Of a DNA stretch of 64,000 bases, positions 3,929 through 60,009 are shown one piece after another (within the stretch, counting starts at the first letter, position 1; every line of letters starts with the position of its first letter). The DNA is taken from sequence record OM858838, one strand, 5' to 3'. This stretch comes from Shigella phage B2. The notes below the pieces were generated by a model. That model did not search any database and was not told the origin of the DNA. It saw only the letters and a program-made list of their open reading frames with translations. The translations under genes and the position numbers were made by a program.

Positions 3929-5371
3929 ATGGCTAAGACTCTTGAGCAAGATGAAAAGAAAGTACACGTTGCTGAAATCGTTCGTCACGGCGAAAAACTG
4001 ATTGTGCCGGAAGGCATGTCTCTGAGCGATGTTATCGACCTCGCTAAACGTCGCATGAAGTTCGAAGAAGAAGAAGTTCTGGTACGTCGTACCTATAACG
4101 TATTCCCATGGGATGGTGCTCATGCTCTGATGCTGGCACTGACCGAACGTTATGGCTGGGCTGCTGCTGAAGCAACTCCTGGTTTCTTCGGCTCCAATCC
4201 TCCGCAAATGCTGGATGTGCAGGTCGGCTATGGCAAAACCAAAAAAGTTCCATGGGGACGTTTCTCTCTGCCACAGGTAGATGGTTTTGTTCAGTGTTCT
4301 GCACAGAAGAAAGATGGTCGTATCAGCTTCGAACTGGTCGGTAAAGTCCTGCGTAAAGACGAAAAGACTATCGAACTGCTGTTTGATACCGTTGAGCAAA
4401 CTCTGCGTACCAACTCCATTTACATGGGTCAGGCTATCAAAATCCGTTTCCGCGATAACGATGGCGACCTGCTGGAAATGCCGGAACCAGAATTCATGGA
4501 CCTGCGTGGTATCAGCCGTGATTCTCTGGTTTATTCTGACGATGTTCAGAACCTGATTGAAACCAACCTGTTTACGCCGATTGAGCGTGTTGCTGACTGT
4601 ATCGCTAACGATATGCCGGTTAAACGTGGCGTTCTGCTGGGTGGACCATACGGTACTGGTAAAACTATGGCTGCAACTGTTGCTGCTGCTCTGGCTACCA
4701 ACGTGGGTGTTACCTACGTATACGTACCGCGTTCTGATGAACTGTCTGATGCAATTCAGTTTGCTAAGCAGTACAGCGATAAAGCCTGCGTAATCTTCTG
4801 TGAAGATATCGACCGTGCCGTATCCGGTGAACGTAGCGTGAAGATGGACGATATCCTGAACATTCTGGATGGTATCGACACCAAAACTTCTCGCATCATC
4901 ACCGTTCTGACCACCAACCATCTGGAAAACATCAACCCAGCAATGCTGCGTCCGGGCCGTCTGGATGCAATCATCGATGTTACTGCGCCTGATGCGAAAG
5001 CTGTTGAAAAACTGGTTCGCCTGTATGGTCGTGACACCATCGCTGCTGATGCAGACCTGACTCTGGTCGGTGAAGCTCTGGCTGGTACTATTCCTGCGGT
5101 AATCGCGGAAGTTGTTAAGCGTGCGAAACTGCACCAGCTTCAGTATCAAGAAGCAGGTACTCTGATTGAAGAAATCAGCGGTCAAGCTCTGCTGGATTCC
5201 GCTCTGACTATTCAGGCACAGCGTAAGCTGCTGGAAGAACAGTCCAAGCCGAAAGTTAAAGAACCAACCTTCAACGAAACTATCGCTGCTGCTGTTGCTC
5301 CGGCAATTGCTGAAGCTGTAGGTAAAGTTGCTGGTCAGGTTTCTGAACTGCACGAACGTATCGTCGGCTAA
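3929..5371 (+). CDS. classic-clade AAA+ ATPase, codon-optimised (highly expressed)
   Basis: Walker A GGPYGTGKT, Walker B VIFCEDID, second region of homology with RPGRLD; strong host-like optimal codon usage (CTG, CGT, GGT, AAA) distinct from neighbours. Confidence 0.85.
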   Translation: MAKTLEQDEKKVHVAEIVRHGEKLIVPEGMSLSDVIDLAKRRMKFEEEEVLVRRTYNVFPWDGAHALMLALTERYGWAAAEATPGFFGSNPPQMLDVQVGYGKTKKVPWGRFSLPQVDGFVQCSAQKKDGRISFELVGKVLRKDEKTIELLFDTVEQTLRTNSIYMGQAIKIRFRDNDGDLLEMPEPEFMDLRGISRDSLVYSDDVQNLIETNLFTPIERVADCIANDMPVKRGVLLGGPYGTGKTMAATVAAALATNVGVTYVYVPRSDELSDAIQFAKQYSDKACVIFCEDIDRAVSGERSVKMDDILNILDGIDTKTSRIITVLTTNHLENINPAMLRPGRLDAIIDVTAPDAKAVEKLVRLYGRDTIAADADLTLVGEALAGTIPAVIAEVVKRAKLHQLQYQEAGTLIEEISGQALLDSALTIQAQRKLLEEQSKPKVKEPTFNETIAAAVAPAIAEAVGKVAGQVSELHERIVG

Positions 5372-5434
5372 CCGCCAGTAGTACTTGGATAGCCCTTCAA
5401 TGAGGGGCTATTCCAGTTATCACTGGAGGTAATC

Positions 5435-6112
5435 ATGAAGAATCTTTACCAGAAGATTGATGGAAGCCAATACAACCGAATCTTCGTTGTAGGAGATTTA
5501 CATGGTTGCTTTGATGAATTCCAAAAAGAGATGTGGGCTGTTCAGTTTAATGCTGAAACAGACTTAATCATCTCTGTAGGTGATTTAATTGACCGTGGTT
5601 CACAGAATGTGAATTGCTTACGTCTGTTAAATGAACCTTGGTTTAAAGCTGTTCTGGGTAATCATGAAGTAATGGCACTCAATGCCTTATCTTCTGAACC
5701 TTCTTCTGAAGAAGGGGATTTAGCATATTACAATTGGTTCCGTAATGGAGGCATTTGGATTATGGATATTCCTGAAGAACAGAAACCAGAAGTATTAGAA
5801 TTATTTACTCAGGTAGCAGAACTGCCTGGTATCATTGAAGTCTCAGTAGGTGACAAGACTATTGTTATCTGCCATGCAGACTACCCTTCAAATCAGTATC
5901 AATTCGATAAACCAGTTGATGAGGAAACTCTTATCTGGGGTAGAGAGCGTATAGCTCAAAACCAAAATGGAGAAGGTACTGTCATTCAAGGTGCTGACGA
6001 ATTCTACTTCGGTCACACACCTGCCAAAGACCCTATGCAATTTCATAACCAACATTACATTGATACCGGAGCAGTATTCGGTGGTCGATTAACATTGGTT
6101 CAAATCAAATAA
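5435..6112 (+). CDS. PPP-family Ser/Thr protein phosphatase (metallophosphoesterase)
   Basis: GDLHG, GDLIDRG and GNHE signature motifs in canonical order; GGAGG SD. Confidence 0.85.
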   Translation: MKNLYQKIDGSQYNRIFVVGDLHGCFDEFQKEMWAVQFNAETDLIISVGDLIDRGSQNVNCLRLLNEPWFKAVLGNHEVMALNALSSEPSSEEGDLAYYNWFRNGGIWIMDIPEEQKPEVLELFTQVAELPGIIEVSVGDKTIVICHADYPSNQYQFDKPVDEETLIWGRERIAQNQNGEGTVIQGADEFYFGHTPAKDPMQFHNQHYIDTGAVFGGRLTLVQIK

Positions 6113-6134
6113 CTGCCTTCGGCAGTTGCTTTGG
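6112..6134 (+). promoter_or_regulatory. TTC-triloop hairpin (actgcc-TTC-ggcagt) followed by TGCTTTGG
   Basis: 6-bp stem, 3-nt loop, overlaps stop codon of phosphatase gene; identical downstream octamer to hairpin at 3831. Confidence 0.4.
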
Positions 6135-6164
6135 TTACTCTTCACATCTGCATAGGTGCTCAAT

Positions 6165-6470
6165 ATGAAAATCCAAAAATTCGGTACTATCAATTTCACT
6201 GACTCCCTCAACTTGCCAATATTCTCGGGGTTCACTTTTAGTATTGAGAGTGAATCTGAACAGAGTATGACTCAAGATAAAAAGCTTAAAACTTTAATAA
6301 TGGTAACGGCTATCCGTGACCACTTAAGTAAAGTAGTTAAGTTTATTGAGGAAGATATCAGTAAAGCTTCTCTAAGAGATTCTGGGGACTTTTCTACTCC
6401 TGTAGGTAAAAGTACTAAGTCACCTGAAGAAATCGTCTCAGAGAGCCTCTCACGAATCATGGCTAAGTAG
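6165..6470 (+). CDS. hypothetical protein
   Basis: ORF with AGGTG SD; ATG at 6165 preferred over GTG at 6156. Confidence 0.5.
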   Translation: MKIQKFGTINFTDSLNLPIFSGFTFSIESESEQSMTQDKKLKTLIMVTAIRDHLSKVVKFIEEDISKASLRDSGDFSTPVGKSTKSPEEIVSESLSRIMAK

Positions 6471-6498
6471 TATTGAGCCTCTTTGGTTAAGGAGGCGT

Positions 6499-6759
6499 AT
6501 GTCTGAATCCCCAAATGCTACATATCGTGGAAACATGATGTGTATCAACTTTAGTTATGACTTTAAAATAGTCCTCCCTATTGAAGATGGTAAAGCCTTA
6601 CTTGAATTATTGAGTAAGGCTGAAATCTACAGGGAAGAATATAATAAAGACCCTTTCATTGAGCCAATGGATAAATCTTTAGATATCAAATTCATTGCTC
6701 GGAGTAAGTATGAGCTTCTTAAGCTCGCATTTTTAAGGACTGAGAATGAGTCTAACTAG
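6499..6759 (+). CDS. hypothetical protein
   Basis: AAGGAGG SD 4 nt upstream of ATG. Confidence 0.5.
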   Translation: MSESPNATYRGNMMCINFSYDFKIVLPIEDGKALLELLSKAEIYREEYNKDPFIEPMDKSLDIKFIARSKYELLKLAFLRTENESN

Positions 6760-7990
6760 TTGCCAAGAACAAGCAGCTAAGCAGTTCTTATCGTTTCTTT
6801 GTACTCCAATGAAACATATGGTTATTTCTGGTCCACCTGGAGTAGGCAAGACATTCATGCTTAATCACATGATTGATATGTTGCCTAGTACTAGACGTAT
6901 CACAAATATTATGGGTGTTGACCCAATTAATAATATTGCTGTTACTGCTACAACCAATAAGGCTGCTGAAGTATTACAGGAAAGGTTCTCTAATAGAACT
7001 GTATCCACAATCCATTCAACGTTAGGTCTAACAGTAAGGGATGATTACCGAACAGGTAAAACATTCACTGCTAAGGGCAAAAACTTTATACCTCTATCCG
7101 ACACTCTCATCCTTATGGATGAATCCTCAATGGCGGATACTCAACTACTGAAGTTAATCGATGAAGGTACTGCTAAAAACTGTAAGATAGTTTTTATTGG
7201 TGACCATTGTCAGTTGGCTCCAGTCTCAGAAACAATGAGTCCAGTTTTCAACTCGGGCTACATTACTTCATATCTAAATACCCAAATGCGAACTAACAAT
7301 AGTCCAGCATTAACTCTACTTAATGACCAGTTACGTCAGACAGTAGAAACGGGTGTCTTCAGACCAATCATTCCTGTTCCCGGTGTTATCGATTTCGTTA
7401 ATGACGATGAGATGCGCCGACTGATGAATGCAAATTTCATTTTGCAGGAAACTCCCGGTCATAAAATCCTAGCTTATACAAATAATGGGGTTCAAGAGTA
7501 CAACTCGTACATACGAACCAAGAAGCATTTACCTCCAACTTTGATGGTAGGTGATGCTGTCGTATCAAATAACAGCATTGAAACTGCTGGTTCTCGTACC
7601 ATTATCGAAAAGGTATACCGAGTACATTCAATATCTGGTGTACATCATAATGATGGTATTCCTTACTACATGGTAGATATTGGAGTAGGTGGTTTAGTTA
7701 AACAACCTGTTAACTATAGCCAGTTACAACAAGCAATCAGAGAAGCAGCCAATAATAAAGATTGGGTTGAGTACTTTCGTTTAAAGAATGAATTTGCTGA
7801 CTTACGGTTTGCATATGCATCTACTGTACATAAGTCTCAAGGCTCAACATTTGATACTGTCTATATCGATTTAGGTGACTTGTGCATCTGCAAGGATATG
7901 GAACAATTAGCTCGTATGCTTTATGTAGCTGCCAGTCGTGCTACTACTCGTGTTGTGTTCTATGGTAATCCTCCTCACTTCATGAGGTGA
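6746..7990 (+). CDS. Dda/RecD-like superfamily 1 DNA helicase
   Basis: Walker A GPPGVGKT, Walker B LILMDESSM, motif TVHKSQGSTFD and C-terminal AASRATTR typical of RecD/Dda helicases. Confidence 0.8.
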   Translation: MSLTSCQEQAAKQFLSFLCTPMKHMVISGPPGVGKTFMLNHMIDMLPSTRRITNIMGVDPINNIAVTATTNKAAEVLQERFSNRTVSTIHSTLGLTVRDDYRTGKTFTAKGKNFIPLSDTLILMDESSMADTQLLKLIDEGTAKNCKIVFIGDHCQLAPVSETMSPVFNSGYITSYLNTQMRTNNSPALTLLNDQLRQTVETGVFRPIIPVPGVIDFVNDDEMRRLMNANFILQETPGHKILAYTNNGVQEYNSYIRTKKHLPPTLMVGDAVVSNNSIETAGSRTIIEKVYRVHSISGVHHNDGIPYYMVDIGVGGLVKQPVNYSQLQQAIREAANNKDWVEYFRLKNEFADLRFAYASTVHKSQGSTFDTVYIDLGDLCICKDMEQLARMLYVAASRATTRVVFYGNPPHFMR

Positions 7991-7992
7991 TT

Positions 7993-8466
7993 ATGTCCAC
8001 ACTCACTACTCCAACAAGTAGGCATAAAGAAGATATTCTGGATTGGTTACTTAACTTAATTACAGATAACTTCTGTACTTTTGTACATAATAAAGAATTG
8101 CAATTATGCATTGATAACAATGCTCCTGATGGATTCATGTTTAATAATATGACATTCAGAGGAACTGACAGAATGGTTTTCACATGTAAACCAGAACTGG
8201 AAGAAACTGCAAAAGAAGTATGGGAATTGAAGCAAAAAGTTAAGAGAGACTGGATGTATCTCGAAAACTACTTCAAAAGAGTATTGGCTCGTATGACTAA
8301 CTATGGTCAGTTGTACTGCTATGTACCTCCCTTTATGCATAACAAGCTTAATGAAATCTTTGTTCATGCTTTCATAGGCGAGAAAGAACCAATCAGAGGT
8401 ATGCCTCCTGATGAGTCTATTCATAAACTTATCTCGTTCTATGTGATGACTAAATTGGTTATCTAA
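7993..8466 (+). CDS. hypothetical protein
   Basis: ORF; GAGG SD before ATG at 7993. Confidence 0.5.
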   Translation: MSTLTTPTSRHKEDILDWLLNLITDNFCTFVHNKELQLCIDNNAPDGFMFNNMTFRGTDRMVFTCKPELEETAKEVWELKQKVKRDWMYLENYFKRVLARMTNYGQLYCYVPPFMHNKLNEIFVHAFIGEKEPIRGMPPDESIHKLISFYVMTKLVI

Positions 8467-8711
8467 TGGATATCGCATTTGTAGTATCAAAAGTAATTGT
8501 TACAGAGTACACACTGCTTAGGCAGTGGTGGCCTGAACAGTTACGCGAGTCTAGATATGTCGATACAGATATGACTAGAACCTACTTCTTAGATAGACTT
8601 CCCTCTCCTGAATTGTATGAGCTTATGGATAGGCTTAATGCAGAAGGAAGAACCTATCGATTTATGGACTTAAGAGGAGTGGACTCAGAAGATGCGTCAC
8701 ATAATCTTTGA
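8466..8711 (+). CDS. hypothetical protein
   Basis: ORF with ATG overlapping upstream stop. Confidence 0.45.
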   Translation: MDIAFVVSKVIVTEYTLLRQWWPEQLRESRYVDTDMTRTYFLDRLPSPELYELMDRLNAEGRTYRFMDLRGVDSEDASHNL

Positions 8712-10347
8712 ACAGAACCAAAGATATCCAATAGCAATTCTCATCAAACCACAGCAACTAAAGAAGCGTGAGTTACAGGAAGCGTATATCGACCCTACTG
8801 GAATCAAGCCAAAGCAATTCATTGCATTTGACCTTGAGTACAATGGTAAGAAAGCTCCTGTATCTATGCAGAAAGACTATCTTAAAGACCTGTTACCAGA
8901 GCTATGCAACTTAAGAACAGAGTATGTTCTATGTTGCGATAGTGCTTACTTCAAGACTCTAACCAAGCAAACCAAAGCAGAACCTCATTATGGTTATGTA
9001 TTGCCTTGTGCTATTGCTGGTTTCGAGCACTTGAATATTATCTTTTGTCCTAACTATGCTCAGATTTTCTATGACCCATCAGTTCAGGATAAAGTCGATT
9101 TAGCACTTAAAGCATTGGTAGATAAAGTGAATGGGCAATACCAAGAGATTGGTAAGGATATTATTCATTCTGCTTATTACCCTTCAACAGTTGAAGACAT
9201 TGAAGCTTGGCTTGAATCTCTTCATCAATATCCAGTATTGGCGTCAGATATTGAGGCATTTAGCCTCAAATTCTATACAGCAGGTGTAGGTACTATTGGT
9301 TTTGCATGGGACCAACACAATGGAGGAGCATTCGCTGTTGATTACACGAATGAACCAGACAAGGCTAATAGGATAAGGCAGGCTCTTAAGAAGTTCTTTG
9401 AAACTTATAAAGGCAAACTGATTTGGCATAACGCTAGTTATGACTTAACAGTGCTTATCCATCAGCTTTGGATGAAAGGTCTAATAGACCAGAAAGGACT
9501 GCTTAAGGGGTTGCATATTATGTGTCGTGATTTTCACGATACTAAGATTGTAACTTATCTGGCTACAAACTCTTGTGCAGGTAATGAATTGGGACTGAAA
9601 GCTCAGGCTCATGAATTTGCTGGCAACTATGCACAAGAAGATATTAATGACATTACTAAGATTCCTCTTCCAGAGTTACTGGAATACAACTTAGTTGACT
9701 GTTTAAGCACTTGGTATGTTGCAGACAAACATGCAGATACTATGGTGCTGGATGAACAGTGGGAAATCTATAATGACCTAATGTTACCTTCGCTGAAGAA
9801 TATTATTCAGATGCAATTAACTGGTATGCCTATTGATATGGCAGAAGTTAAGAAGGTTAAAATAGAGATGACTAAAGAGCGTGATGGATATCTCAATGCT
9901 ATCCGTTCATTTGCTGTAGTAGATTTACTAGTTCATAACTTGCGTGAACAACATGTAGCTACTCGTAATGCTGCCCTTAAAACCAAGCAAATTACAATGT
10001 CTGATGATGAGACATTAAAAATAGAGTTTAATCCAAACTCTAACCCTCAGATGCAAGAACTCTTGTATGAGATTATGGGATTACCTGTAATCGATTATAC
10101 CGAATCTAAACAACCTGCTACTGGAGCAGATACTTTAGATAAGTTAATTAACCATACAACAGATGACCGTCAGAAAAAGATACTCGAATGCCTTATTAAG
10201 TATTCTAAGGTAGAGAAGATTTTATCTGCATTCATCCCTGCATTTGAAGAAGCACCTTTAGCCGAAGATGGTAACTACTATCTGTTCGGTAGCTATAACT
10301 TAGGTGGTACTGTATCCGGTCGTTTGAGTTCATCAAAGCCTAAATAA
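8692..10347 (+). CDS. DNA polymerase I family, N-terminal part (3'-5' exonuclease and palm start), ends inside the conserved GRLSS..PN.QNIP motif
   Basis: exonuclease-like DIEAFSLKFY region; C-terminus …TVSGRLSSSKPK matches the first half of the Pol I motif …TGRLSS.DPNLQNIP. Confidence 0.85.
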   Translation: MRHIIFEQNQRYPIAILIKPQQLKKRELQEAYIDPTGIKPKQFIAFDLEYNGKKAPVSMQKDYLKDLLPELCNLRTEYVLCCDSAYFKTLTKQTKAEPHYGYVLPCAIAGFEHLNIIFCPNYAQIFYDPSVQDKVDLALKALVDKVNGQYQEIGKDIIHSAYYPSTVEDIEAWLESLHQYPVLASDIEAFSLKFYTAGVGTIGFAWDQHNGGAFAVDYTNEPDKANRIRQALKKFFETYKGKLIWHNASYDLTVLIHQLWMKGLIDQKGLLKGLHIMCRDFHDTKIVTYLATNSCAGNELGLKAQAHEFAGNYAQEDINDITKIPLPELLEYNLVDCLSTWYVADKHADTMVLDEQWEIYNDLMLPSLKNIIQMQLTGMPIDMAEVKKVKIEMTKERDGYLNAIRSFAVVDLLVHNLREQHVATRNAALKTKQITMSDDETLKIEFNPNSNPQMQELLYEIMGLPVIDYTESKQPATGADTLDKLINHTTDDRQKKILECLIKYSKVEKILSAFIPAFEEAPLAEDGNYYLFGSYNLGGTVSGRLSSSKPK

Positions 10348-11053
10348 ATTGGGCTGTTTAAACTTCGTGAATTCGGGGAAAATCCAGAACGGACAATCCC
10401 GAGCCAAGTCAACCAATCATGTCTTAAGAGGCAGAATGGACACTAAAAAATTAGAATATTTATATGAAAACACTTCTTTATCTCAGAAAGAGATTGCTAA
10501 GTGTTTAGGATTAAAATCTGCTAGGGCTGTTCAAAAATATTGTTACAGACACTATACAAGTGCCTATCGTAAAGAAAGGCATTCCAAGCTATTAGCTAAA
10601 GCTAAACTAGGAAGTTTAAACCCTATGTTTGGTAAATCTGGTTTATACCACCCCAGATATCTAGGAGTTGTCTCTGACAACAAAGGGTATTGGATGGTAT
10701 TAAAACCAGAGTGGTATACAGGGCGTAAAAGCAGTAAGCATGTATTTTTACATTCTGTAGTTGTATGTGAACATCTAGGATGGACAGAAATACCGAAAGG
10801 GTATGTAGTTCATCATTGTGATTTTGACCCATCAAATAATGATTTTGATAATTTAGTGGTGCTTACTGTAGCAGAACATATGAGCTTACATGCAGCATTG
10901 AAAGGTGTAACGACTATCTCGAAAGAGAGTACACTCAAGTGGGTGGAAGCGCGAAGGGCTGGTAACAGCCATGATATAGTCTGACCTGTATAGGAATATA
11001 CAGCAGCACTGAATAGTGCGAGTACAGCTTAACGAACTGTACTGAACGTAGTG
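10342..11053 (+). mobile_element. candidate group I intron carrying an HNH homing endonuclease ORF, inserted in the DNA polymerase gene
   Basis: insertion splits a single ultra-conserved motif; proposed 5' exon ends in T (10341), insertion ends in G (11053); joining 10341 to 11054 is in frame and restores SKPNMQQIP. Confidence 0.5.
10436..10984 (+). CDS. HNH homing endonuclease
   Basis: VVHHCDFDPSNNDFDNLVVLTVAEHMSLH HNH motif; GAGG SD before ATG 10436 (track ORF starts further upstream at non-ATG 10349). Confidence 0.8.
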   Translation: MDTKKLEYLYENTSLSQKEIAKCLGLKSARAVQKYCYRHYTSAYRKERHSKLLAKAKLGSLNPMFGKSGLYHPRYLGVVSDNKGYWMVLKPEWYTGRKSSKHVFLHSVVVCEHLGWTEIPKGYVVHHCDFDPSNNDFDNLVVLTVAEHMSLHAALKGVTTISKESTLKWVEARRAGNSHDIV

Positions 11054-11995
11054 AATATGCAACAAATCCCATCCTCTAAGAGTCCTTATGCCAAGCCTAT
11101 TAAGCGATGCTTTAAAGCTGGTAAAGGTTGGCTTCTTATTGGGTTAGACTTTGCATCTCTAGAGGACCGTATTTCAGCTCTGACAACCAAAGACCCCAAT
11201 AAACTTAAAGTTTATACTGATGGGTATGATGGTCATTCTCTCAGAGCATTCGCTTACTTTGGCGACCAAATGCCTGATATTCAGAATACAGTGGATAGTA
11301 TTAATAGTATTCAGGACTTATATAAGGACTTTAGACAAGAATCTAAAGCTCCTACTTTTGCACTTACCTATCAAGGTACTTATCACACATTGATGGCTAA
11401 CTGTGGCTTCCCAGAAGACAAAGCGAAAATGGTTGAAAAGAGGTATCACGAACTCTATTTCGTCTCTGACCAATGGGTAGACGCCAAGTTAGCACAAGCC
11501 AGCAAAGATGGTTATATCACTGCTGCATTCGGATTAAGAATCCGTACTCCATTACTCAAAAATGTTGTCTGGGGAATTAAACAAACACCATATGAAGCCA
11601 AAGCAGAAGGCAGAACTGCTGGTAATGCTTTAGGTCAGTCTTGGTGCTTGTTAAATAACCGAGCAGCAAATGAGTTTATGGAACGTGTATGGAATTCTCC
11701 TTATGCAGATGTAATCAAACCATGCGCTCAAATTCATGATGCTCAGTATTATCTGGTTCCAGATGATATTGATATTGTTCATTGGGTTAATGAGAACTTA
11801 GTTGAGTGTGTTCAATGGCAAGACCATCCCGATATCTATCACGAGGAAGTGAAGTTAGGAGGAGATTTAAGTGTCTTTTACCCATCATGGGCTAATGATA
11901 TCTCCTTAAAGAATGGAGCTTCTAGAGAAGAAATCTTAGATACATGTGAAGTTGGATTGGATAAGTATCTTCACCCGGAGAAATATAAAAAATGA
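11051..11995 (+). CDS. DNA polymerase I family, C-terminal part (fingers/palm with motifs A and C)
   Basis: begins NMQQIP (second half of the split motif), DFASLEDR motif-A-like, QIHDAQYY motif-C-like. Confidence 0.85.
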   Translation: MNMQQIPSSKSPYAKPIKRCFKAGKGWLLIGLDFASLEDRISALTTKDPNKLKVYTDGYDGHSLRAFAYFGDQMPDIQNTVDSINSIQDLYKDFRQESKAPTFALTYQGTYHTLMANCGFPEDKAKMVEKRYHELYFVSDQWVDAKLAQASKDGYITAAFGLRIRTPLLKNVVWGIKQTPYEAKAEGRTAGNALGQSWCLLNNRAANEFMERVWNSPYADVIKPCAQIHDAQYYLVPDDIDIVHWVNENLVECVQWQDHPDIYHEEVKLGGDLSVFYPSWANDISLKNGASREEILDTCEVGLDKYLHPEKYKK

Positions 11996-17690: not shown

Positions 17691-18434
17691 ATGTCTCTGT
17701 TAAAAAATCTGGAAACTAAAGCTGGCATCGAAGGTGAAAAGGATATTCTGGGCGGTGATGGTGCTCTTGAATCAGGTCTGTATGACCTGACTATCAAAGT
17801 AGCATACGTCACTACCTCTAGTGGTGGTGCATTAGCTTTGAATACCGTATTTGACTATAACGGTAAAGAAGTACGTCAGCAGTTCTGGATGACTTCTGGT
17901 ACTGCCAAAGGTGGCAAGAACACCTATATCGATAAGAGAACTGGTAAAGAACAGTATCTCCCAGGATTCCTGACAGCTAATAGCTTGGCTCTCCTGACTG
18001 TTGGTAAGGAAATTAGCCAACTGGAGTTGGAAGAGAAAACCATCAAACTGTATGACTTTGATGCCAAAGGTGAAGTACCTACTAAAGTACAGGTATTCAC
18101 TGAACTGACTGGTCAAACAATCACTGCTGGTGTACAGAAACAGACTGTTGATAAGAACATTGATTCTGGTCAGGTAGATGGGCAAGGTCAGAAAATCTAT
18201 GTCCCATCTGGGGAGACTCGTGATATTAACGAAGTTGTTAAGTTCTTCCGTGCAGATGATGGTCTGACTGTTCCTGAAATTGAAGCTCAGGTAACTGAAG
18301 CTAAATTTAAAAATGATTGGGATGCCAAGTATACTGGTAAAACCATCAATAAAGCCAAAGGCTCTAAAGATGGTGTAACAGCAGGTGCTCCATCAGCAGG
18401 AGCTAAACCTACTAAATCCCTGTTTGCTAAATAA
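17691..18434 (+). CDS. abundant protein, candidate single-stranded DNA-binding protein
   Basis: strongly optimised codon usage, position at end of replication module as for the SSB of N4-like phages; C-terminal PTKSLFAK tail. Confidence 0.55.
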   Translation: MSLLKNLETKAGIEGEKDILGGDGALESGLYDLTIKVAYVTTSSGGALALNTVFDYNGKEVRQQFWMTSGTAKGGKNTYIDKRTGKEQYLPGFLTANSLALLTVGKEISQLELEEKTIKLYDFDAKGEVPTKVQVFTELTGQTITAGVQKQTVDKNIDSGQVDGQGQKIYVPSGETRDINEVVKFFRADDGLTVPEIEAQVTEAKFKNDWDAKYTGKTINKAKGSKDGVTAGAPSAGAKPTKSLFAK

Positions 18435-20190: not shown

Positions 20191-20218
20191 AAGCCCCATC
20201 CTTGGGGCTTTTCTTTTA
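20191..20218. terminator. bidirectional intrinsic terminator between convergent + and - strand genes
   Basis: stem aagcccca/tggggctt flanked by A-run upstream and T-run downstream. Confidence 0.55.
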
Positions 20219-23200
20219 GTACAAACTCACCAGAGGGTGTACTGTAAGTCCATTCAATGCTGTACCCATCCCAACGTTATAACTCAGACTACCAGTTACT
20301 AAGTTGGCTTCAGTAATGTTAGGTAATCCAGATTCAACACTGTTACCAAACATCAGGAACAATGCTCTCAATGGATTCTCTCTAATCGTTCTCAGAATGA
20401 TTTTCTGGATACGAATCTTATAGTTCAGGAACCAAGTTAAACCAATAGCATCCAGATAGAATCTGGTACGACTTGGTAACACATCATAGTTCACGAACTC
20501 ATCCATCACTCTGTTAAGCGCACTGTCTTTATCCATTGGATTACTCTTACGAGTAGTCAAATGTTTATACAATGAATACTTAGCAACAAAGTCACCATAC
20601 TGGATTGAACGGTTCAGTAAGAAGTACACGTTACTATCTCTTGAAAGGGTAACTTCCTTAGCAACACGTTTAACACTATCTGGAATACCAGATGTGTATT
20701 CATCCATCTTATTAAGTAATTTATCTTTCAATGAATAGTTATCTTGCTGTCCTAAATCCTCTGCAATGGTAGGCAGTAAACCTGCTTTGATTAAATCAGC
20801 AACAGGGTTACGAGCCTGAGAATCTTTCAGTTCTGAAATCTTTCTCTGATATTCGTCAGCCATTTTAGGATTATGGTTTACAGCCAGATAGTGAGAATAC
20901 TCGTTAATCAGTTTCTCATTCTTTCTGTACTCCTCAGCAGCCAGTACAGCAGTAGACATATCCTTAGCCATAGTCACAGGGCTTACACCAACAGTAGCTA
21001 AGTGAACCATGTTAGAAACAATGTTCGCTGCTGATACAACTATTGAACGAACTACAATCCAATCCTTCATTTCCTTCACGAATTCCATCAGACCACGTTC
21101 ACCAAGTCTCAGATAGCGAGCAGCATTCTTACCTAAGAAGGTTTCAGCAATGCTGGTGAAAGCTTTCTGGAACTCTTTAGAGTAACCAGTCTGACCAGTC
21201 CACATATTCAGTACAGAAGGTTCACGATAACCAAATGCGTTATTCAGTAAATCCTTACGTACTTTAATCTTACCATCAGGCCAAATCTTCTTAGCTTGTT
21301 CCTTCATCTCAATAGGCATCAGTTCATAAATCTCTTTTAACTGATGGTCTGTAGAGTTCTCATCCATAGTAATGTATTGGTATGCCCTGCCTTCTCTGGC
21401 ATCCTTCACATACATTTCATGGAGTCTCTGGAGCAACATTTCATTGTATCTGGCTGCCTGAATCTCCTCAGCAATACGACCTTCCCAAGCACCGATTACC
21501 TTAGTGAAATCATTATCTACATCCAAATGTGCTTCTTTGTTAGCTCTAGGCATCTGATATGAGTAACCCATAATTGAACCAGCACGATTCAATACAGGTT
21601 GCATATATGAGTTATTGCCAGTAGGCATAGGAGCATTTGCATCAAATAAATTATCAATACTGCTTCTCTTACGAGTAGATAAATTATTCTTCTCAGTAGC
21701 TCTCCATATACCCGGAGTCATAGCACCATTCACAGTTCTACCTGTAATTGGGTTTACTCCACCTACGGTGTTTTGCAGGGTACTCATTACACCAGCAATC
21801 CAACGAGGTTCACCACCATTGTTTGAATGGTAGTAATACATTGGTTCCTTGTTGGTATCCTGTGGGTCACGAGCAACCTGAGCACCTCTGGTATACCCTC
21901 TACGAGATAAGCTTGGTTCATCTTTAATAGATGCAATAATCACTTTCTTGTTAGGGTCTGACAGAGTAGGAGTAAATCCTTTAATCCCAGCTAGTGCTTG
22001 GTTTTGACCAGACTTAGCTAACTCTGCACCCTGCAAGCTTGAATAATATTTGAGAGTGAAAGTCATCCCATTATTATTTGGTTCACCTTTAGTCATCTCT
22101 CTATTAATCAAATTACTTACAGTAGCAATATCAGTCTGAGATAACTCTTTCAGTGCTGCCAGAGAAGCCATAGTATCAACCAATTGAGTAACAGTATTAA
22201 CTGTTGCATCATTAGGTCTAACTCTGCCAGTACCAATTAAACGAGCAATAGCTGCTGCGTTAGGTAACTGATAAGCCAGTGGACTAACTCCATGAACCAT
22301 TTGTTTAGCTAATCCATATGCAGACTTAATATAGAAAGGAGCATTCTGTGCACCTGCTGTCTGCAATTGAGATTCAATAGAAGCAATCTCTTTAGCCAGT
22401 TCAGTTGGATTGGTTAAGAGTTCATTCAGTCGTGCCAAGTCATATCCATTGGCAAACAGATAAGCCATATCAGTATTAGCAACTACTCTCTGAATAGCTT
22501 CTTTCTCTGTTTGGTTCAGGGATACAAATGTACTCTCAATCATACCCGGAACCATCTCACGAATAATCTGACGTGCTCTATCAGCAGCCATATTCTTCTG
22601 AGTCAGTAAGGTATGAATGGTGCTATTGGTTTCGTTAGAACCAATGAACTCATTAATCAGTTCAGCAACAGTACCTAACTTGCCATTCTGGTGAATGGTC
22701 ATATAAATGTTAGTGATAGCATCACGTACATCCTGAGCATCTTGGTCATTGAATACTGCTGAACCAGCAGTGATACCAAATGCTACAGACTTAGGTACTT
22801 TCTTCTCTACCTTGAGTAACTGTCTACGGATAGTGTGACCAAAGGATTTGAGTTTATCCTGAGTAGTATCAGTGATTTTCTCTGCACCTCTAACCAATCT
22901 ACCAAACAGATTGTCTCTGGCTTCACTATCAACATGACTAATATTCTTAGCCAGTTTAGTTAAGCGAGAAGCAACGTCAGTATTACCCAAAGACTTAGTA
23001 GCCAAACCCGATAACCAAGTAAGAATGGCATTGGTTAAATCACCAATACGTTCTCTCAGAGTTGTAGCTGGAGTCTGTCTGGTACGCTTAACACTAATCT
23101 GAGAAAGTTTATTTCTCAGTTGTTCATTGGTTTCTGCCAGTGCAATGAAGTTAGCCAGTCTATTAGTACGACCAGTAGCATCAGTAGTCACAGCAGTGTT

Positions 23201-43918: not shown

Positions 43919-44218
43919 ATGGCATACTCAGATGTTGATGCAATTCTTGCTGATGGTAAACAAGCTGTAGCTGTTAAACATGGTGGTGGTTTAGTTGTTG
44001 TAGGTGAACTTGGTGCTCAAGTACTTGCAGCTAAAGACGTAAGTGAATTACCAGATGGTGTAGGTGGTACTGCTCCAGGTGCTGCTACTACTACTACTGC
44101 TGGTGTAGTTAAACAATCAACTACTCAAGCAGCTTCAGTAGCTACTGATGTAGCAGGTGTAGTTACTGATTTGAATGCTTTAATTACTAAGCTAAAAGCT
44201 GCTGGTATTATGGCTTAA
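43919..44218 (+). CDS. small Gly/Ala/Thr/Val-rich protein sharing N-terminal module with next gene
   Basis: GGAGG SD; N-terminus MAYSDVDAILADGK…GGG…LAAKDVSELP; biased codon usage. Confidence 0.55.
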   Translation: MAYSDVDAILADGKQAVAVKHGGGLVVVGELGAQVLAAKDVSELPDGVGGTAPGAATTTTAGVVKQSTTQAASVATDVAGVVTDLNALITKLKAAGIMA

Positions 44219-53755: not shown

Positions 53756-54364
53756 ATGTCTGAAGTTAAAAAAGTTATTACCGTTTCTGACCGTTCTACC
53801 AAAGCTCTGGTAGTTGCTATTGCTGGCTTAGGCAAGATTGCCACTGACCTTCAAGGTCTAGGTGATATTACCGTTAAGTTGGCTGATGATATTGAATTCA
53901 AACAGTCCCAATTGGACAATCTGGATTCTGAATTCGAAAACAAATTCCGTGAATCTGCCGCACAACTGCGTCTGCGCGTACTGGAAGATGAAGAAGGTGT
54001 ACTTCTGAACATGCTCCAGCAGCGTGGTCTGGCACATGTCACAACCTTAGCACTGAACGAACTGCAAGATAAGCTGGTTGAAGCCACCTCTGATAACTCA
54101 GAAGCTCTGGCTCAAGCTGAATCCGCTGGCTTCCGTAAAGGTGCTGCACAGTTCGAACAGAAACTGAAAGATGCCGATGCAAACCATCGTATTGCAATGG
54201 CTGAACTTACCGCTAAATCCAACGCGAAAGACGATAAAATCGCTCTGCTGGAAAGCCAACTGGAAGATGCACGTAAGCAGATTACTGCTGAACGTGAAAC
54301 CCGTCTGGCAGTAGCACAGGCTGAATCTGCTCGTCAGGGTGTTGTAGTAAACACCGGTAAGTAA
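53756..54364 (+). CDS. coiled-coil protein, codon-optimised (highly expressed)
   Basis: GAAGGA SD; Ala/Glu/Leu-rich heptad-like sequence; host-optimal codons. Confidence 0.7.
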   Translation: MSEVKKVITVSDRSTKALVVAIAGLGKIATDLQGLGDITVKLADDIEFKQSQLDNLDSEFENKFRESAAQLRLRVLEDEEGVLLNMLQQRGLAHVTTLALNELQDKLVEATSDNSEALAQAESAGFRKGAAQFEQKLKDADANHRIAMAELTAKSNAKDDKIALLESQLEDARKQITAERETRLAVAQAESARQGVVVNTGK

Positions 54365-54992
54365 TAAACTCAGATTGTCGTTTTACTACGACGATTGGGA
54401 TAGCAAGCTGGCTCTGCTTAAACCAGCGCATAGTAATGAGAGCATTTGCAGGGGCGATGGATTGATGTTATTTAACCATGCGTGTAAGTGTTCTCTTTAC
54501 TATGCTGCCATAGTAACCCGAAGATTGCTTTCCTTAGAGGAAGCAGAGTTTAAACAGGTATATCCTGTCCTGTATTGAAGGTGTAACAACTGAATATACC
54601 AGAGTACTAGAACTCTGTTACCGAACTCAGGGAGTTGCTGGCCTAACCAGCTTAACATCCTATCAATGAGTACACTTGATTGAGGTCAGAAGATGAAATG
54701 AAGCTTCTGTAAAATGAATCCACAGAGTGTACTCTTTGATAGTTTTCGTATGCGATTATGCGGTTTTTTAAAAACGAACCATAAAACATAAATGCAAACG
54801 ATGATGTTGTTCTGATGGCGGCTTAACAGCCTATAAATCAGTGAGGTATTCCAGTTCCTCATAACAGAATCTGGCGCACTGGCCCGGTGTGATTAATAAT
54901 GGGCAACCAATATCTCTTTAAGTGTATTGAATCAGTATATTTACAGAGATACGCGCCAAGTATATCTCACTTCCGAATACGTTGATTATTTT

Positions 54993-55019
54993 GCCCATCT
55001 CCCTTGATGGGCTTTTTTT
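54993..55019 (+). terminator. intrinsic terminator at start of early region
   Basis: stem gcccatc/gatgggc with T7 run. Confidence 0.55.
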
Positions 55020-55113
55020 ATCCCAATCCCCGCCTTACGCTTATGCGCTTCCATCGCTCACTACGTTCGCTCGGAGCGCTTCGCTTCAGGCTAGTCGTAG
55101 GAGACTCTTAAGA

Positions 55114-56376
55114 ATGTCTACCCCTTGTGAAAGATTAGGTTATAAAGAAGGAATGCAGTTCACTCTCGTCAACGATGATGTTGATGGATTGAGTGCTGGT
55201 GATACCCTCTGGCTTCATAGTGATGATGGTTCACATAATCCTGAATTCCGTGATACTGAAAAAGTAAACGATGATACTGAAACCTACTACATCGATTTAA
55301 ACTGTGTAGCTCGTTGTACCGAAGATGAAACACTCGCCTATAACCGTGGCTTAAGAGAAGGAGATATCCTTCAGATGGTTATGGATGATGATGGTGAGGA
55401 AGCCTATGAAGGCGATATCATCACATTCATCAAAGATGATGGAGATACCTGTCCTCAATTTGAAGTACAGAAGGATGGTAATAAGGCTTACCTGTACCTC
55501 TCTCATGTAGGTGGATTAGAACCTAAAGTAGGTCGTAAGGTTCGTGTAATCCATAACTGTACTGGTGGGTTCTCTTCAGGTACTGAAGGAACTATTGTTG
55601 ATATCTGTTCTGATGGGGACTATTTGATTGCAGCACGTGGAGATACCATGTATCACCATGCTGACTCCTGTATTGTCTTCGGCTATGCAGATGACGAATC
55701 CTCTGACAGTAAAGACCCTGAACCAGTAAAAGAAGATTACCCAACTAAACCTGCTTCTGAATGGAAACAAGGTGATAGAGGTATTGTTCGTGGTCAGCAA
55801 GATAATGACCCACATAACTTCCAGATTGGTGAAGAGATTACCTTTGAACGGGGAAGAGACTCAGAAAGAGGTATCTTCCGAGGTACTAAGTACACTTCTA
55901 CTCAAAACATTCAATATGATTTGATTGAAGTAGTCTCTATTGAACCGTACCCAATCACTGTTACTAAAGTATCCAAAGAGAATCCTGTAGCCTGTATCAA
56001 AGCTATACGTGCTGCTACTGGGTTAGGTTTGTATGAAGCTAAACAAGCTTATGACTTTGTTAGAGATAACGAAGAACCATACAGCTTACAGATAATCATC
56101 TCTAAAGGTGAGTTAACTCATCTCTTTACTGAAGCAGGTATCGAATACTTCTTTGATAGACAAACTGAAGTATCTGGAACCAAACCAACAGTAATCATCT
56201 GTGATGAGTTAGCTGATACTTCTAAGAAGTATAAATACTTCATTGATGGTGATTCCATTGAAGTAACATTAGTTGGATACTTCGAAGGTGAACCCATCTG
56301 TGCTTACAAAGACAGATGGGGTGATATTCAAACCTTCGTAGCTAAACAATCACTTCTGGTATCTGATGATGACTAA
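55114..56376 (+). CDS. early protein with acidic DDG-repeat N-terminal region and ribosomal protein L7/L12 C-terminal-domain-like segment
   Basis: VACIKAIRAATGLGLYEAKQAYDFV closely parallels the L7/L12 CTD core [29 protein letters not shown] SD before ATG 55114 (track ORF start 54982 rejected). Confidence 0.6.
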   Translation: MSTPCERLGYKEGMQFTLVNDDVDGLSAGDTLWLHSDDGSHNPEFRDTEKVNDDTETYYIDLNCVARCTEDETLAYNRGLREGDILQMVMDDDGEEAYEGDIITFIKDDGDTCPQFEVQKDGNKAYLYLSHVGGLEPKVGRKVRVIHNCTGGFSSGTEGTIVDICSDGDYLIAARGDTMYHHADSCIVFGYADDESSDSKDPEPVKEDYPTKPASEWKQGDRGIVRGQQDNDPHNFQIGEEITFERGRDSERGIFRGTKYTSTQNIQYDLIEVVSIEPYPITVTKVSKENPVACIKAIRAATGLGLYEAKQAYDFVRDNEEPYSLQIIISKGELTHLFTEAGIEYFFDRQTEVSGTKPTVIICDELADTSKKYKYFIDGDSIEVTLVGYFEGEPICAYKDRWGDIQTFVAKQSLLVSDDD

Positions 56377-56790: not shown

Positions 56791-56906
56791 ATAATGGGGT
56801 ACAGATAGTACCCCATTTCATAAACCAGTATCAAACCAATAGTAACTAACTCTATCACTAACCATTTCATCTCCCTACCCTCATAACATTCATAGGAACC
56901 AATCCA

Positions 56907-57149
56907 ATGAACGAAATCATTATACTCTCTTCTCTTGGTTTTATCTTTGGTTGGATTACATCAAGAGTTAACTACAAACGTAAGATTATTAGATGCATTA
57001 GTAACATTACCTTTGAATCTAACTCTTCTAACAAGGATTTCAAGAATGGTATAGACAGGGGAATAGAATCTACTAAAGACTACATAATCAGAGTACTTAT
57101 CAACAACAAGTTAGATAAGGATTATAGTAAAAGATATAATAAAGACTAA
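56907..57149 (+). CDS. small membrane-anchored early protein
   Basis: N-terminal hydrophobic helix. Confidence 0.45.
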   Translation: MNEIIILSSLGFIFGWITSRVNYKRKIIRCISNITFESNSSNKDFKNGIDRGIESTKDYIIRVLINNKLDKDYSKRYNKD

Positions 57150-57360
57150 CTAACTACTGTCAATATGTAATTTAATACAGTACTAACTAAGGAATACCAA
57201 TGAAGTTACATGATATCTTATTCATAGTACTAGCTATTGTACTGTTTGGATTAGCAGTATATCTAAGTAAATAATTATTATTTTTTAAAGGGTTAGAGAA
57301 TTTTTAATAATTACTTACCAATGTAGTATTACTGCACACAATCTTTTATTAATCCGAATA

Positions 57361-57446: not shown

Positions 57447-57788
57447 ATGAAACCTGTTAACTCTATCGGTATCTTCGGTGCTGTATCTTCCTCAACTGTA
57501 TCTGCATTGAATGCAATTGAACGTGGTGCAGTAGCTGTAGCCAATACTGCCAACATGGCTGTAGCTGTTACTGAATGGGGCAATGATGAAATCGAGAACC
57601 TTCGTCATCACCGTGCTATCAAACGTGAGGTAGAGGGTGAAATCTTCCGTACTAAATATGTTATGGAAGCTGCTAAAGAAGTAGCAGAAGTACATGCAGA
57701 AGCAGAGAAATCCATGAAGGATGCATCACCAGAGGTTAAAGCAGTGTTCGATGCACTGGTAGCCAAACATTTGGGTAACAAGAAATAA
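57447..57788 (+). CDS. hypothetical early protein
   Basis: AGGAG SD; 113 aa. Confidence 0.55.
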   Translation: MKPVNSIGIFGAVSSSTVSALNAIERGAVAVANTANMAVAVTEWGNDEIENLRHHRAIKREVEGEIFRTKYVMEAAKEVAEVHAEAEKSMKDASPEVKAVFDALVAKHLGNKK

Positions 57789-57804
57789 TCACTAAGGCTC
57801 AAGG

Positions 57805-58231: not shown

Positions 58232-58233
58232 TA

Positions 58234-58572: not shown

Positions 58573-58648
58573 TAATCTAATACCCTTCAATTCCAATAAA
58601 CATACTATAGAGCACTTAGTTACTATCTAGGTGTTCAGGAGTGTATTT

Positions 58649-58855
58649 ATGTCTATTAAATTAACTGTTGTTGCTAAACGTTATAACTCAGAGAAACTCA
58701 TCAGAATACTTATGCCATGGGGTTCTAACATCTCATATGGTAGACGTTGGCAAGTGTCATTTAGGGATGGTAGAGGTAGACACTATGACCATTCATTCGT
58801 AGCTAAACCAACTCGTAAACAGATTCGTAAACTCATCAAGGATATCAACAAATGA
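58649..58855 (+). CDS. small basic early protein
   Basis: AGGAG SD before ATG 58649. Confidence 0.45.
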   Translation: MSIKLTVVAKRYNSEKLIRILMPWGSNISYGRRWQVSFRDGRGRHYDHSFVAKPTRKQIRKLIKDINK

Positions 58856-59142
58856 AACAGTACAAATTACTTGAAGGCTTTCACTCTATGCTTCCTCAAG
58901 AAGCTATCGTTCCATCTCAACCATCAGACGTTCAGGAAGGTGATTACGTCAAGATTGGTGTAGAAACCAATGATGGTAAAGCAACAGAGAAGTTCTGGGC
59001 TGTTGTGTACTGCATTGACAGAGATAACTGGAAGTATGGAGTACGTATCAATCAAGACCTCTGTCAAACTCAATTACATGGTCTTAGTGATGGTGATGAA
59101 CTCATTGTTGAATTCAAACATATCGTAGCTGTTATTAAATAG
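58852..59142 (+). CDS. hypothetical early protein
   Basis: ATGA-coupled ORF. Confidence 0.5.
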   Translation: MKQYKLLEGFHSMLPQEAIVPSQPSDVQEGDYVKIGVETNDGKATEKFWAVVYCIDRDNWKYGVRINQDLCQTQLHGLSDGDELIVEFKHIVAVIK

Positions 59143-59228
59143 GAGCTATCAAATGGAATGGTGGTTAGCAGAGATTGTACCTAGCTTATTCGGAGCTATC
59201 GTAGGTGGTCTGGTTGTATATCTAGCTG

Positions 59229-59474
59229 TTGCTAAAGGAGAGGATGATGATGATGCGTAAGTCATTACATGTAGGTACTAAAACTGATGTTATTAAACGT
59301 CGCTCTAAACCAGTATTAGATGTGGAATTTTTACATGTACGTATTAGTGAAACTTATAATGAATGTGGTCAGATGATTGCTGCTGGTGTTAATCCTTATG
59401 CTGCTGTTGTAGCTATGGATACCAAGCTCAGTCGTATTGTTACATTCAATCATCCTAATCTTCTGAACATGTAA
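59229..59474 (+). CDS. hypothetical early protein (start within ATGATGATGATG run)
   Basis: AAGGAG SD followed by four tandem ATG codons. Confidence 0.45.
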   Translation: MLKERMMMMRKSLHVGTKTDVIKRRSKPVLDVEFLHVRISETYNECGQMIAAGVNPYAAVVAMDTKLSRIVTFNHPNLLNM

Positions 59475-59483
59475 TATCTTCAT

Positions 59484-59551
59484 CACCGTCTTCGACGGTG
59501 GTGGAGTTCTCCCTTAAGTTCTCCTTCTCCTGTAAGAGCGACTTCGTCGCT
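59484..59551 (+). promoter_or_regulatory. tandem pair of TTC-triloop hairpins (caccgtc-TTC-gacggtg at 59484-59500; agcgac-TTC-gtcgct at 59537-59551), each followed by GTGGA
   Basis: 7-bp and 6-bp perfect stems with 3-nt loops, 36 nt apart, upstream of codon-optimised gene at 59593. Confidence 0.45.
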
Positions 59552-59592
59552 GGTGGAATAATCCAATTCAATTAACTATCGAGGTAATTATC

Positions 59593-60009
59593 ATGGCAGT
59601 ATTAAACGGTTCTAACAACGCTTCTTCTATCATCGGTGCTGCTCTGGGTGGTAAACCTGCTGCTGGTGCACAGCGTCCACAAGCTGAAGTATTTATCAAC
59701 GTTGGTATCAACGTACAGATGCCTAACGAAGAAGGTGAGATGGTTGATACCTTCCTGTCTCTGCCTTTCGGCCTGCCGTTGGATACCATGAATGAACTGG
59801 TGATTCGTGGTAATAACCAGCAGTGGAATGAGCAGGCTGCTGCTCGTAATGAGCTTCTGAAAGCTCTGGTCAAAATGGGTGAAGCTCTGGATGCTGGTAC
59901 TGGTACAGAGATGCCTAAGCTCAGTGTTCAACTGTATCGCCGTAAGGCTCAGGAAGAACATCAGGCCAGCAACAACGCAATGGCTCAGATTCTGGCTGCA
60001 TTGAGCTAA
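59593..60009 (+). CDS. abundant early protein (codon-optimised), function unknown
   Basis: host-optimal codons; flanked by tandem hairpins upstream and tetraloop terminator downstream. Confidence 0.75.
   Translation: MAVLNGSNNASSIIGAALGGKPAAGAQRPQAEVFINVGINVQMPNEEGEMVDTFLSLPFGLPLDTMNELVIRGNNQQWNEQAAARNELLKALVKMGEALDAGTGTEMPKLSVQLYRRKAQEEHQASNNAMAQILAALS

Follow-up and report, generated by a model that had tools for sequence, protein, structure and literature searches.

Classical observations on T7 and lambda established translational selection on highly expressed phage genes, and phage-encoded tRNAs are generally understood to make up for the scarcity of host tRNAs for host-rare codons. In phage N4, gp2 is a single-stranded DNA (ssDNA)-binding protein that recruits RNA polymerase II. 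High expression as a cause of codon bias is already an established principle, and so is the elevated codon adaptation index (CAI) of phage structural genes (Lucks et al., 2008, PMC2266997). The present study deals with a stretch of 64,000 nucleotides of an N4-like phage (sequence record OM858838, analyzed over its whole length and called the window below), and in particular with a small set of its genes that use host-optimal codons. This set is headed by a gene for an AAA+ ATPase (3929-5371) and a gene for a coiled-coil protein (53756-54364). Its best explanation, to which we give a probability of about 0.8, is translational selection that has driven the genes of a few bulk, stoichiometric products to host-optimal codons. 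What is new is that, in several phage lineages, the codon adaptation of a mobile AAA+ gene matches or exceeds that of the capsid gene, and that the coiled-coil family behaves in a similar way.

Over 4 kb, the window shares 99.3% identity with Salmonella phage vB_SenP_UTK0001 (UTK0001), and it is 98.4% identical to FSL SP-058. These relatives are N4-like and belong to the Schitoviridae, subfamily Humphriesvirinae, genus Ithacavirus. The window has the N4-like hallmark, a 3,741-amino acid (aa) virion RNA polymerase open reading frame (ORF) on the minus strand, and encodes homologues of N4 gp24, gp25, gp37, gp39, gp42-45, gp50-57, gp59, and gp67-69. The record is circularly permuted, with the left end of the genome at ~57.2 kb of the window.

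Codon adaptation was measured with weights derived from E. coli K-12, namely from 26 ribosomal-protein genes together with rpoA, tufA, and fusA (30 genes and 5,096 codons in total), and 73 window genes were ranked by CAI. For the z scores, the protein sequence was kept and synonymous codons were resampled from the rest of the phage; a second version also fixed the class of the third codon position (GC3). The seven highest-ranked genes are the following:

3929-5371, plus strand: AAA+ ATPase gene, 480 aa, the most codon-adapted gene of the window; CAI 0.745, rank 1/73, z 12.7, GC3-fixed z 10.0
53756-54364, plus strand: coiled-coil protein gene, 202 aa, phrog_9325; CAI 0.666, rank 2/73, z 6.5, GC3-fixed z 5.2
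37072-38241, minus strand: major capsid protein (MCP) gene, phrog_1357 major head protein at 9e-139; CAI 0.665, rank 3/73, z 9.6, GC3-fixed z 6.8
59593-60009, plus strand: N4 gp2 homologue (gp2-like gene), 33% identity over 111 aa, E 5e-13 against 72 N4 proteins; CAI 0.642, rank 4/73, z 5.6, GC3-fixed z 4.2
57447-57788, plus strand: left-end gene, the first at the left end of the genome, in the position of N4 gp1, phrog_5020; CAI 0.625, rank 5/73, z 2.9, GC3-fixed z 2.2
17691-18434, plus strand: N4-type single-stranded DNA-binding protein (SSB) gene, homologue of N4 gp45, phrog_743 SSB at 6e-75 over residues 1-247; CAI 0.584, rank 6/73, z 4.7, GC3-fixed z 2.8
43919-44218, plus strand: capsid decoration protein ("head fibre") gene, 99 aa, PF11133 at 3e-10; CAI 0.529, rank 7/73, z 1.1, GC3-fixed z 1.5 (p=0.06)

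These genes have CAI values of 0.529-0.745 against a median of ~0.37 for the phage genes. On the same scale, the reference genes themselves reach 0.54-0.84 (median 0.68) and the adjacent poorly expressed gsp genes 0.23-0.40; the AAA+ gene falls within the range of host ribosomal-protein genes. An earlier sequence-only reading of the window had singled out the AAA+, SSB, decoration protein, coiled-coil, and gp2-like genes for their host-optimal codons and had proposed a comparison with host ribosomal-protein genes as a check. In this comparison all five do stand out, at ranks 1, 2, 4, 6, and 7. Randomization shows that neither amino-acid composition nor GC3 accounts for the raised CAI of the AAA+, MCP, coiled-coil, gp2-like, and SSB genes. 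Hence, host adaptation is significant for four of the five genes singled out, but not for the decoration protein gene 43919-44218. The latter has no CTG and no Arg codon, the lowest GC3 of the window (0.06) and an effective number of codons (Nc) of 28, that is, a strong lean to A/T-ending codons rather than significant host adaptation. The list of five was also incomplete, the equally adapted MCP (0.665) and left-end (0.625) genes having been overlooked. The statement that the five are GC-richer than their neighbors is true of three genes (0.49, 0.46, and 0.49 vs. 0.396) and marginal for 17691-18434 (0.418) and 43919-44218 (0.410). Much of the excess is first-position GC, which comes from a composition rich in Ala, Gly, Val, Glu, and Lys.

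A principal component analysis (PCA) of relative synonymous codon usage (RSCU), which needs no reference set, places the same genes at the extreme of its first axis (29% of the variance, r=0.88 with CAI), along which CGT, CTG, GGT, and TCT are opposed to AGA, TTA, ACA, and TCA. The AAA+ gene uses CTG for 42 of its 45 Leu codons and CGT for 23 of its 27 Arg codons, and it contains no TTA, CTA, TCA, AGA, ACA, or ATA.

The claim that three of the five genes have no assignable function was too pessimistic, since only the coiled-coil gene 53756-54364 is wholly unassigned; the AAA+ protein has a fold, if no role. The MCP is 59% identical to N4 gp56. The SSB is 37.6% identical to N4 gp45 and a gp44 homologue lies directly upstream of its gene. 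The gp2-like gene, like that of N4 gp2, belongs to the early region at the left end, from which it is ~2.4 kb away, and its orthologue in Klebsiella phage Pylas is annotated as a DNA-binding RNA polymerase cofactor; as a homologue of N4 gp2, its product would be an ssDNA-binding cofactor of RNA polymerase II. The Pylas counterpart of the left-end gene (gp01) is part of the terminal repeat and has rank 4/90. The protein encoded by 43919-44218 is 95% identical over 99 aa to a protein of SP154, and relatives (SP154, MY01) carry the label "head fiber." The SP154 protein is itself 88-96% identical to gp45 of Shigella phage B2, which according to cryo-EM and virion mass spectrometry is a homotrimer of 99-aa chains that decorates the capsid (Subramanian et al., PMC11654681). 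The window protein and B2 gp45 thus have the same length, belong to the same genus and share ~90-95% identity by transitivity, and this indirect link through SP154 designates 43919-44218 as a putative B2 gp45-type capsid decoration protein gene. The decoration protein of UTK0001 (56902-57288) has 128 aa vs. 99 in the window, with full divergence past about residue 65, pointing to a swapped C-terminal module. In UTK0001 also, the MCP gene (PJM42_0071; 1065-2234 in the stretch examined) is mislabeled "cell division protein FtsH," a label probably swapped with or copied from that of the AAA+ gene.

The codon bias is conserved in relatives. Per-gene CAI in the window and in Pylas is correlated with rho 0.92 over 49 orthologue pairs, even though synonymous sites are close to saturation, with divergences (dS) of 0.4-3 (0.69 for the AAA+ gene, 0.40 for the MCP gene), and CAI decreases with the proportion of synonymous differences, pS, in these pairs (rho -0.33, p=0.02). 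We also counted the synonymous swaps, i.e., the sites at which the window and Pylas have the same amino acid and different codons. In the AAA+ and MCP genes, 63-65% of the swaps are between two preferred codons and 0-2% between two nonpreferred ones, as compared with 25-47% and 12-22%, respectively, in the portal, terminase, primase, and helicase genes. Conserved CAI and constrained synonymous changes show that codon choice has been under selection over the long term. The AAA+ orthologue ranks 1/90 in Pylas (CAI 0.716; MCP 0.709, rank 2) and 2/85 in Erwinia phage Ea9-2 (0.689; MCP 0.738, rank 1). In the 60% GC Pseudomonas phage KPP25, it ranks 2/55 by Nc, next to the MCP gene, and 11/55 on the phage's own RSCU axis. 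There, the AAA+ gene uses CGC, GGC, and GCC, whereas in the window it uses CGT, GGT, and GCT; its codons are therefore re-tuned to each host. In N4, the top CAI genes are gp27, gp56 (0.683), gp45 (0.664), gp40, gp47, gp31, and gp1 (0.545), followed by gp58, gp44, gp48, gp17, gp16, gp6, and gp2. Among them, gp56 (MCP), gp45 (SSB and late-transcription activator), and gp2 have homologues in the window and are among the most adapted genes of both phages, and gp1 occupies the same position as the adapted left-end gene 57447-57788. The codon pattern is a family trait that follows the proteins needed in bulk.

In the reading by translational selection, the few genes with a very large product demand have been driven to CTG, CGT, GGT, GCT, TCT, ACC/ACT, ATC, AAC, TTC, and GAA and shun the host-rare TTA, AGA, ACA, TCA, and ATA. 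The rest of the AT-rich genome uses these rare codons freely. We infer that the bias reflects protein abundance because the identifiable members of the set, the MCP, the decoration protein, the SSB, and the gp2-like cofactor, are bulk proteins. By extension, the AAA+ and the 202-aa coiled-coil proteins should also rank with the phage proteins made in the largest amounts during infection. The "very high expression" put forward by the sequence-only reading thus stands as the best-supported explanation, owing to these bulk proteins, to the same ranking in N4 and to the conservation of the bias, although it is deduced from sequence and draws no support from Shine-Dalgarno sequences or 5' structure.

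Several observations weigh against this explanation. The Shine-Dalgarno sequence of the AAA+ gene is weak (-3.9 kcal/mol), and neither Shine-Dalgarno duplex energy nor 5' mRNA folding is significantly correlated with CAI (rho -0.16 and +0.16). Terminator-like hairpins follow 5 of the 7 top genes vs. 22 of the 66 others, which is marginal (p=0.06). The gene 43919-44218, which encodes a true high-copy virion protein, is not significantly adapted, and the structural genes as a class are not raised (median CAI 0.399 vs. 0.385 for middle genes), so that the rule "structural means adapted" fails wholesale. A search of the literature for expression or proteome data on Ithacavirus, Pylasvirus, and Johnsonvirus found none. 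Finally, the CAI weights come from E. coli and not from Salmonella, a drawback mitigated by the reference-free PCA. E. coli and Salmonella have the same optimal codons.

As in the study of Lucks et al. (2008, PMC2266997), which used the same randomization logic, the MCP gene and the genes of stoichiometric DNA-binding proteins use host-preferred codons beyond what amino acids and GC3 account for. Two features differ from that study: the structural class of the window is not raised, and a non-structural gene, that of the AAA+ protein, tops the MCP gene in both the window and Pylas.

The codons that the adapted genes avoid are related to the tRNAs that the phage encodes:

52135-53369, plus strand: seven tRNA genes (Asp, Ile, Ser-TGA, Asn, Arg-TCT, Thr-TGT, Leu-TAA)

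The codons served by the phage Leu-TAA, Arg-TCT, Thr-TGT, and Ser-TGA tRNAs, namely TTA, AGA, ACA, and TCA, are common in ordinary phage genes but scarce in host ribosomal-protein genes, where they have shares of only 1-5% within their codon families. Together, these four codons make up 7.7% of all codons of ordinary genes and 1.5% of those of the six genes with the strongest adaptation, and they do not occur in the AAA+ gene. Being avoided in adapted genes and used elsewhere, they show that the genome runs two codon regimes: most genes have an AT-rich mutational usage, partly buffered by phage tRNAs, and the few bulk-product genes depend on abundant host tRNAs. Thus, with respect to the general concept of compensation by phage tRNAs, the most adapted genes of the window bypass the tRNA supply. 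N4 cannot serve as a tRNA-free control, since ARAGORN finds in it four tRNAs (Asn, Ser-TGA, Thr-TGT, and Pro) that are absent from the RefSeq feature table; Asn, Ser-TGA, and Thr-TGT tRNAs recur in the phage family of the window.

The avoidance of TTA, AGA, ACA, and TCA may also be viewed as independence from phage tRNAs rather than as a mark of abundance. The adapted genes would then be translated when or where these tRNAs are unavailable, either before they accumulate or in relatives with other tRNA sets. CAI is indeed strongly and negatively correlated with the share of the phage-tRNA-read codons (rho -0.72), and the tRNA repertoire varies among close relatives, with 7 tRNAs in the window, 10 in UTK0001, and 6 in Pylas. 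However, CAI is lowest (median 0.329), and these codons are most used, in the small early-like genes near the ends of the genome, and the late capsid gene is in the adapted set, so that timing alone does not explain adaptation. As the bias also reaches codon families without a phage tRNA (such as Gly, Ala, Phe, and Glu), we consider such independence improbable. Translational accuracy or co-translational folding of sensitive proteins, instead of amount, would be another target of selection, since it likewise favors optimal codons and the AAA+ protein is highly conserved (non-synonymous divergence, dN, of 0.084 vs. Pylas; mean column identity of 70% across the family). Nevertheless, large enzymes that are equally conserved are unadapted (primase, dN 0.068 and CAI 0.36; terminase, 0.062 and 0.40; portal, 0.069 and 0.41), whereas small and simple helical proteins, such as the coiled-coil protein and the left-end gene product, are adapted, and an accuracy effect of this kind appears very improbable.

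A different kind of explanation is that the GC-richer genes, above all the AAA+ gene, form a compositional island recently acquired with the codon usage of a donor, either the host or a higher-GC source. The AAA+ gene has 49% GC in a 40% GC genome, and its family moves between unrelated phages; in the first 50 kb of KPP25, the AAA+ gene is the only strongly shared gene, with 67% aa identity vs. ~25% for portal and terminase, which means that it travels alone. Yet the bias persists under GC3-preserving randomization (z 10), and the gene favors T-ending optimal codons (CGT, GGT, GCT, and TCT), which are marks of highly expressed rather than average host genes. Its orthologue is still top-ranked in Pylas and Ea9-2 despite heavy synonymous divergence, and the AAA+ codons fit each current host, including that of the 60% GC Pseudomonas phage. 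Neither similarity to a donor (with blastn, no match to the AAA+ gene among 5,426 E. coli genomes) nor absence from relatives nor donor-average codons was found. Recent acquisition is therefore largely refuted and, in our opinion, highly improbable. The last explanation to be weighed invokes the strand opposite the AAA+ gene:

3899-5353, minus strand: antisense ORF of 484 codons, exact in-phase complement of the AAA+ sense codons

An overlapping antisense gene encoding 484 aa would constrain the sense codons of the AAA+ gene. The ORF exists, as the sequence-only reading had stated, and it would be very improbable under background codon usage. Its only possible stops are the complements of sense TTA, CTA, and TCA, none of which occurs among the 45 Leu and 20 Ser codons of the AAA+ gene; the probability of this absence is 1.7e-13 with phage usage but 0.075 with ribosomal-protein-like usage. 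The frame is not conserved in orthologues, being broken by one CTA in Pylas (longest run 331) and by three TCA in Ea9-2 (193), and its translation is of low complexity, rich in F, S, N, T, and Q. Because it is open only through the absence of TTA, CTA, and TCA, the ORF is an artifact, a by-product of the bias and not a gene, and the chance that it shapes the AAA+ codons is close to nil. The same artifact has given a wrong-strand annotation in Erwinia phage S6 (HQ728266), where gp100 is annotated on the minus strand (3995-4630 in the stretch examined) and the true coiled-coil homologue is on the plus strand (4001-4609, ATG...TAA, 202 aa, CAI 0.740), extreme codon bias having opened a long antisense ORF. 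Extreme codon bias is thus a source of long spurious antisense ORFs.

Translational selection for bulk products being the preferred explanation, the two families that it highlights deserve a description. The AAA+ protein consists of a unique N-domain (about residues 1-200), a single classical AAA module and a helical tail. PF00004 matches residues 235-351 (3e-16), with no other domain found, and the closest PDB relatives are p97/Cdc48, with E-values down to 1e-27. The protein resembles classical-clade AAA ATPases (p97/Cdc48, PAN/Rpt, FtsH) in its Walker A, sensor-1, second region of homology (SRH) with arginines, and lid domain. Indeed, the Walker A GPYGTGKT, the sensor-1 TTNH and the RPGRLD motif with the SRH arginine fingers are invariant in 31 family sequences. 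It differs from these ATPases by a deleted pore-loop 1, an ED in the Walker B, and the absence of a peptidase domain. The Walker B reads VIFCED instead of hhhhDE, the ED being invariant across 31 diverse relatives; in the alignment with p97, the E stands opposite the Walker-B Asp and the D opposite the catalytic Glu. The aromatic-hydrophobic-Gly motif of pore-loop 1 was not found, the alignments with p97 D1 and D2 having a gap of 5-9 residues over KLAGESE and MWFGESE, respectively, and an invariant YVPR-DEL takes its place in the family. The AlphaFold2 (AF2) model has a predicted local distance difference test (pLDDT) score of 76; its N-domain shows a generic alpha+beta fold, for which no informative structural neighbor was found.

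Scans against NCBIfam and PADLOC gave a generic AAA similarity and nothing more specific. The protein was also considered as an FtsH, a metalloprotease, or a Clp protease, and this assignment was rejected: there is no Pfam peptidase match, neither an M41 domain nor an N-terminal transmembrane segment was found, and the NCBIfam score for FtsH is 54 bits vs. a cut-off of 600, the protein staying far under every NCBIfam cut-off. The database labels "FtsH," "metalloprotease," and "Clp protease" (e.g., in UTK0001, Pylas, and phiEaP8) are wrong. The AAA+ protein does not belong to the B2 virion proteome (PMC11654681). It may be speculated, from its non-virion character, its lack of pore-loop 1, and its ED motif, that stoichiometric remodeling or sequestering would fit it better than catalytic threading by an unfoldase. 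The gene is flanked by two hairpins:

3830-3846, plus strand: GC-rich, terminator-like hairpin AAGCCCC-TTC-GGGGCTT, upstream of the AAA+ gene
5383-5418, plus strand: strong hairpin (-19.7 kcal/mol), directly 3' of the AAA+ stop codon

At the place equivalent to the latter, a terminator is annotated in Pylas. Two genes upstream of the AAA+ gene, at 2873-3694 (plus strand), a second, small AAA ATPase of 273 aa is encoded, which is just a ClpX/HslU-like ATPase core without partner protease and has ordinary codon usage (CAI 0.43).

The AAA+ family corresponds to phrog_10440 and, when grouped at 50% identity, comprises ~1,300 clusters, from phages that infect Proteobacteria and Actinobacteria; in an exhaustive profile search, 1,286 clusters were recovered, almost all with the N-domain and the AAA module, and the longer proteins have N-extensions without Pfam domain. 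Full-length members occur in N4-like phages of Salmonella, Escherichia, Klebsiella, Erwinia, and Pseudomonas, and also in KPP25/phiR18, PhiW-14, a Stenotrophomonas phage, jumbo phages, and Gordonia and Mycobacterium phages. Salmonella enterica contigs of ~100 kb carry homologues that are 63-66% identical; these contigs may be phage-plasmids or another phage type.

The coiled-coil protein always has 202-203 aa in its family, with highly conserved termini, and its AF2 model consists of two long helices (pLDDT 85). No match was found in Pfam, in a PDB sequence search or with Foldseek; a match to MakE (E 1e-3, 18 bits vs. a cut-off of 360) was dismissed. Homologues are present in N4-like phages and in Vequintavirinae myoviruses of ~145 kb. 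In each of four other phages, the homologue has the highest CAI among the neighboring genes checked (S6 0.740, PVP-SE1 0.673, KB57 0.673, and pVco-5 0.552). A search of N4 proteins gave neither a coiled-coil nor an AAA+ homologue, and with respect to N4 both are accessory genes of Humphriesvirinae, Erskinevirinae, and other lineages. In the window, the coiled-coil gene comes right after the tRNA cluster, and in two Vequintavirinae the homologues lie within tRNA clusters (KB57 7817-8428 and PVP-SE1 4001-4612, in the stretches examined); in Erwinia S6 and Vibrio pVco-5, no tRNAs were found within 4 kb of it. Next to it in the window, a gene at 54982-56376 (plus strand) encodes a protein with a bL12 (ribosomal L7/L12 C-terminal) domain (PF00542, 24.4 bits, just below cut-off); this is the bL12-domain protein reported for FSL SP-058 and SP-076 (Mizuno et al., 2019, PMC6375957). 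The tRNA cluster, the coiled-coil gene, and the bL12 gene make up a block of translation-related genes at the right end of the genome.

Other parts of the window complete this picture. The virion RNA polymerase ORF (20216-31441, minus strand) has 3,741 aa vs. 3,595 in UTK0001; its codon adaptation is slight, though highly significant (CAI 0.455, z 9-10). The DNA polymerase gene (8692-11995, plus strand) is in two parts, 8692-10347 and 11051-11995, with an HNH_3 endonuclease ORF between them (10349-10984; PF13392 at 1.4e-10) whose CAI (0.267) is among the lowest; the DNA polymerase of UTK0001 is unbroken, and a comparable HNH intron is annotated in Pylas. Shortly after the gp2-like gene comes a series of small genes (60434-61993, plus strand) with a GC content of 0.26-0.29 and the lowest CAI values of the window (0.19-0.33).

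How the two predicted bulk proteins would act can only be sketched. Tentatively, and with more doubt than confidence, the AAA+ protein might be made at capsid-protein levels as a stoichiometric host-takeover machine, an ATP-driven clamp that sequesters or remodels an abundant, conserved host component such as the ribosome, the nucleoid, or the membrane; the lack of pore-loop 1 and the unusual Walker B would suit such a clamp. The coiled-coil protein might then act as another effector made in bulk, perhaps with a link to translation, since its gene is inside tRNA clusters in two lineages and adjoins that of the bL12-domain protein in the window.

For databases, corrections follow for the protease labels of the AAA+ family, the "FtsH" label of the UTK0001 capsid gene, and the strand of S6 gp100. 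More generally, codon adaptation is a free predictor of bulk phage proteins that needs no data beyond the genome and that recovers the capsid protein, the SSB, and the gp2-like cofactor. The AAA+ and coiled-coil families are strongly adapted in every phage checked, the former across four host genera. Both are thus priority targets in N4-like phages, a group with several candidates for use in therapy or biocontrol.

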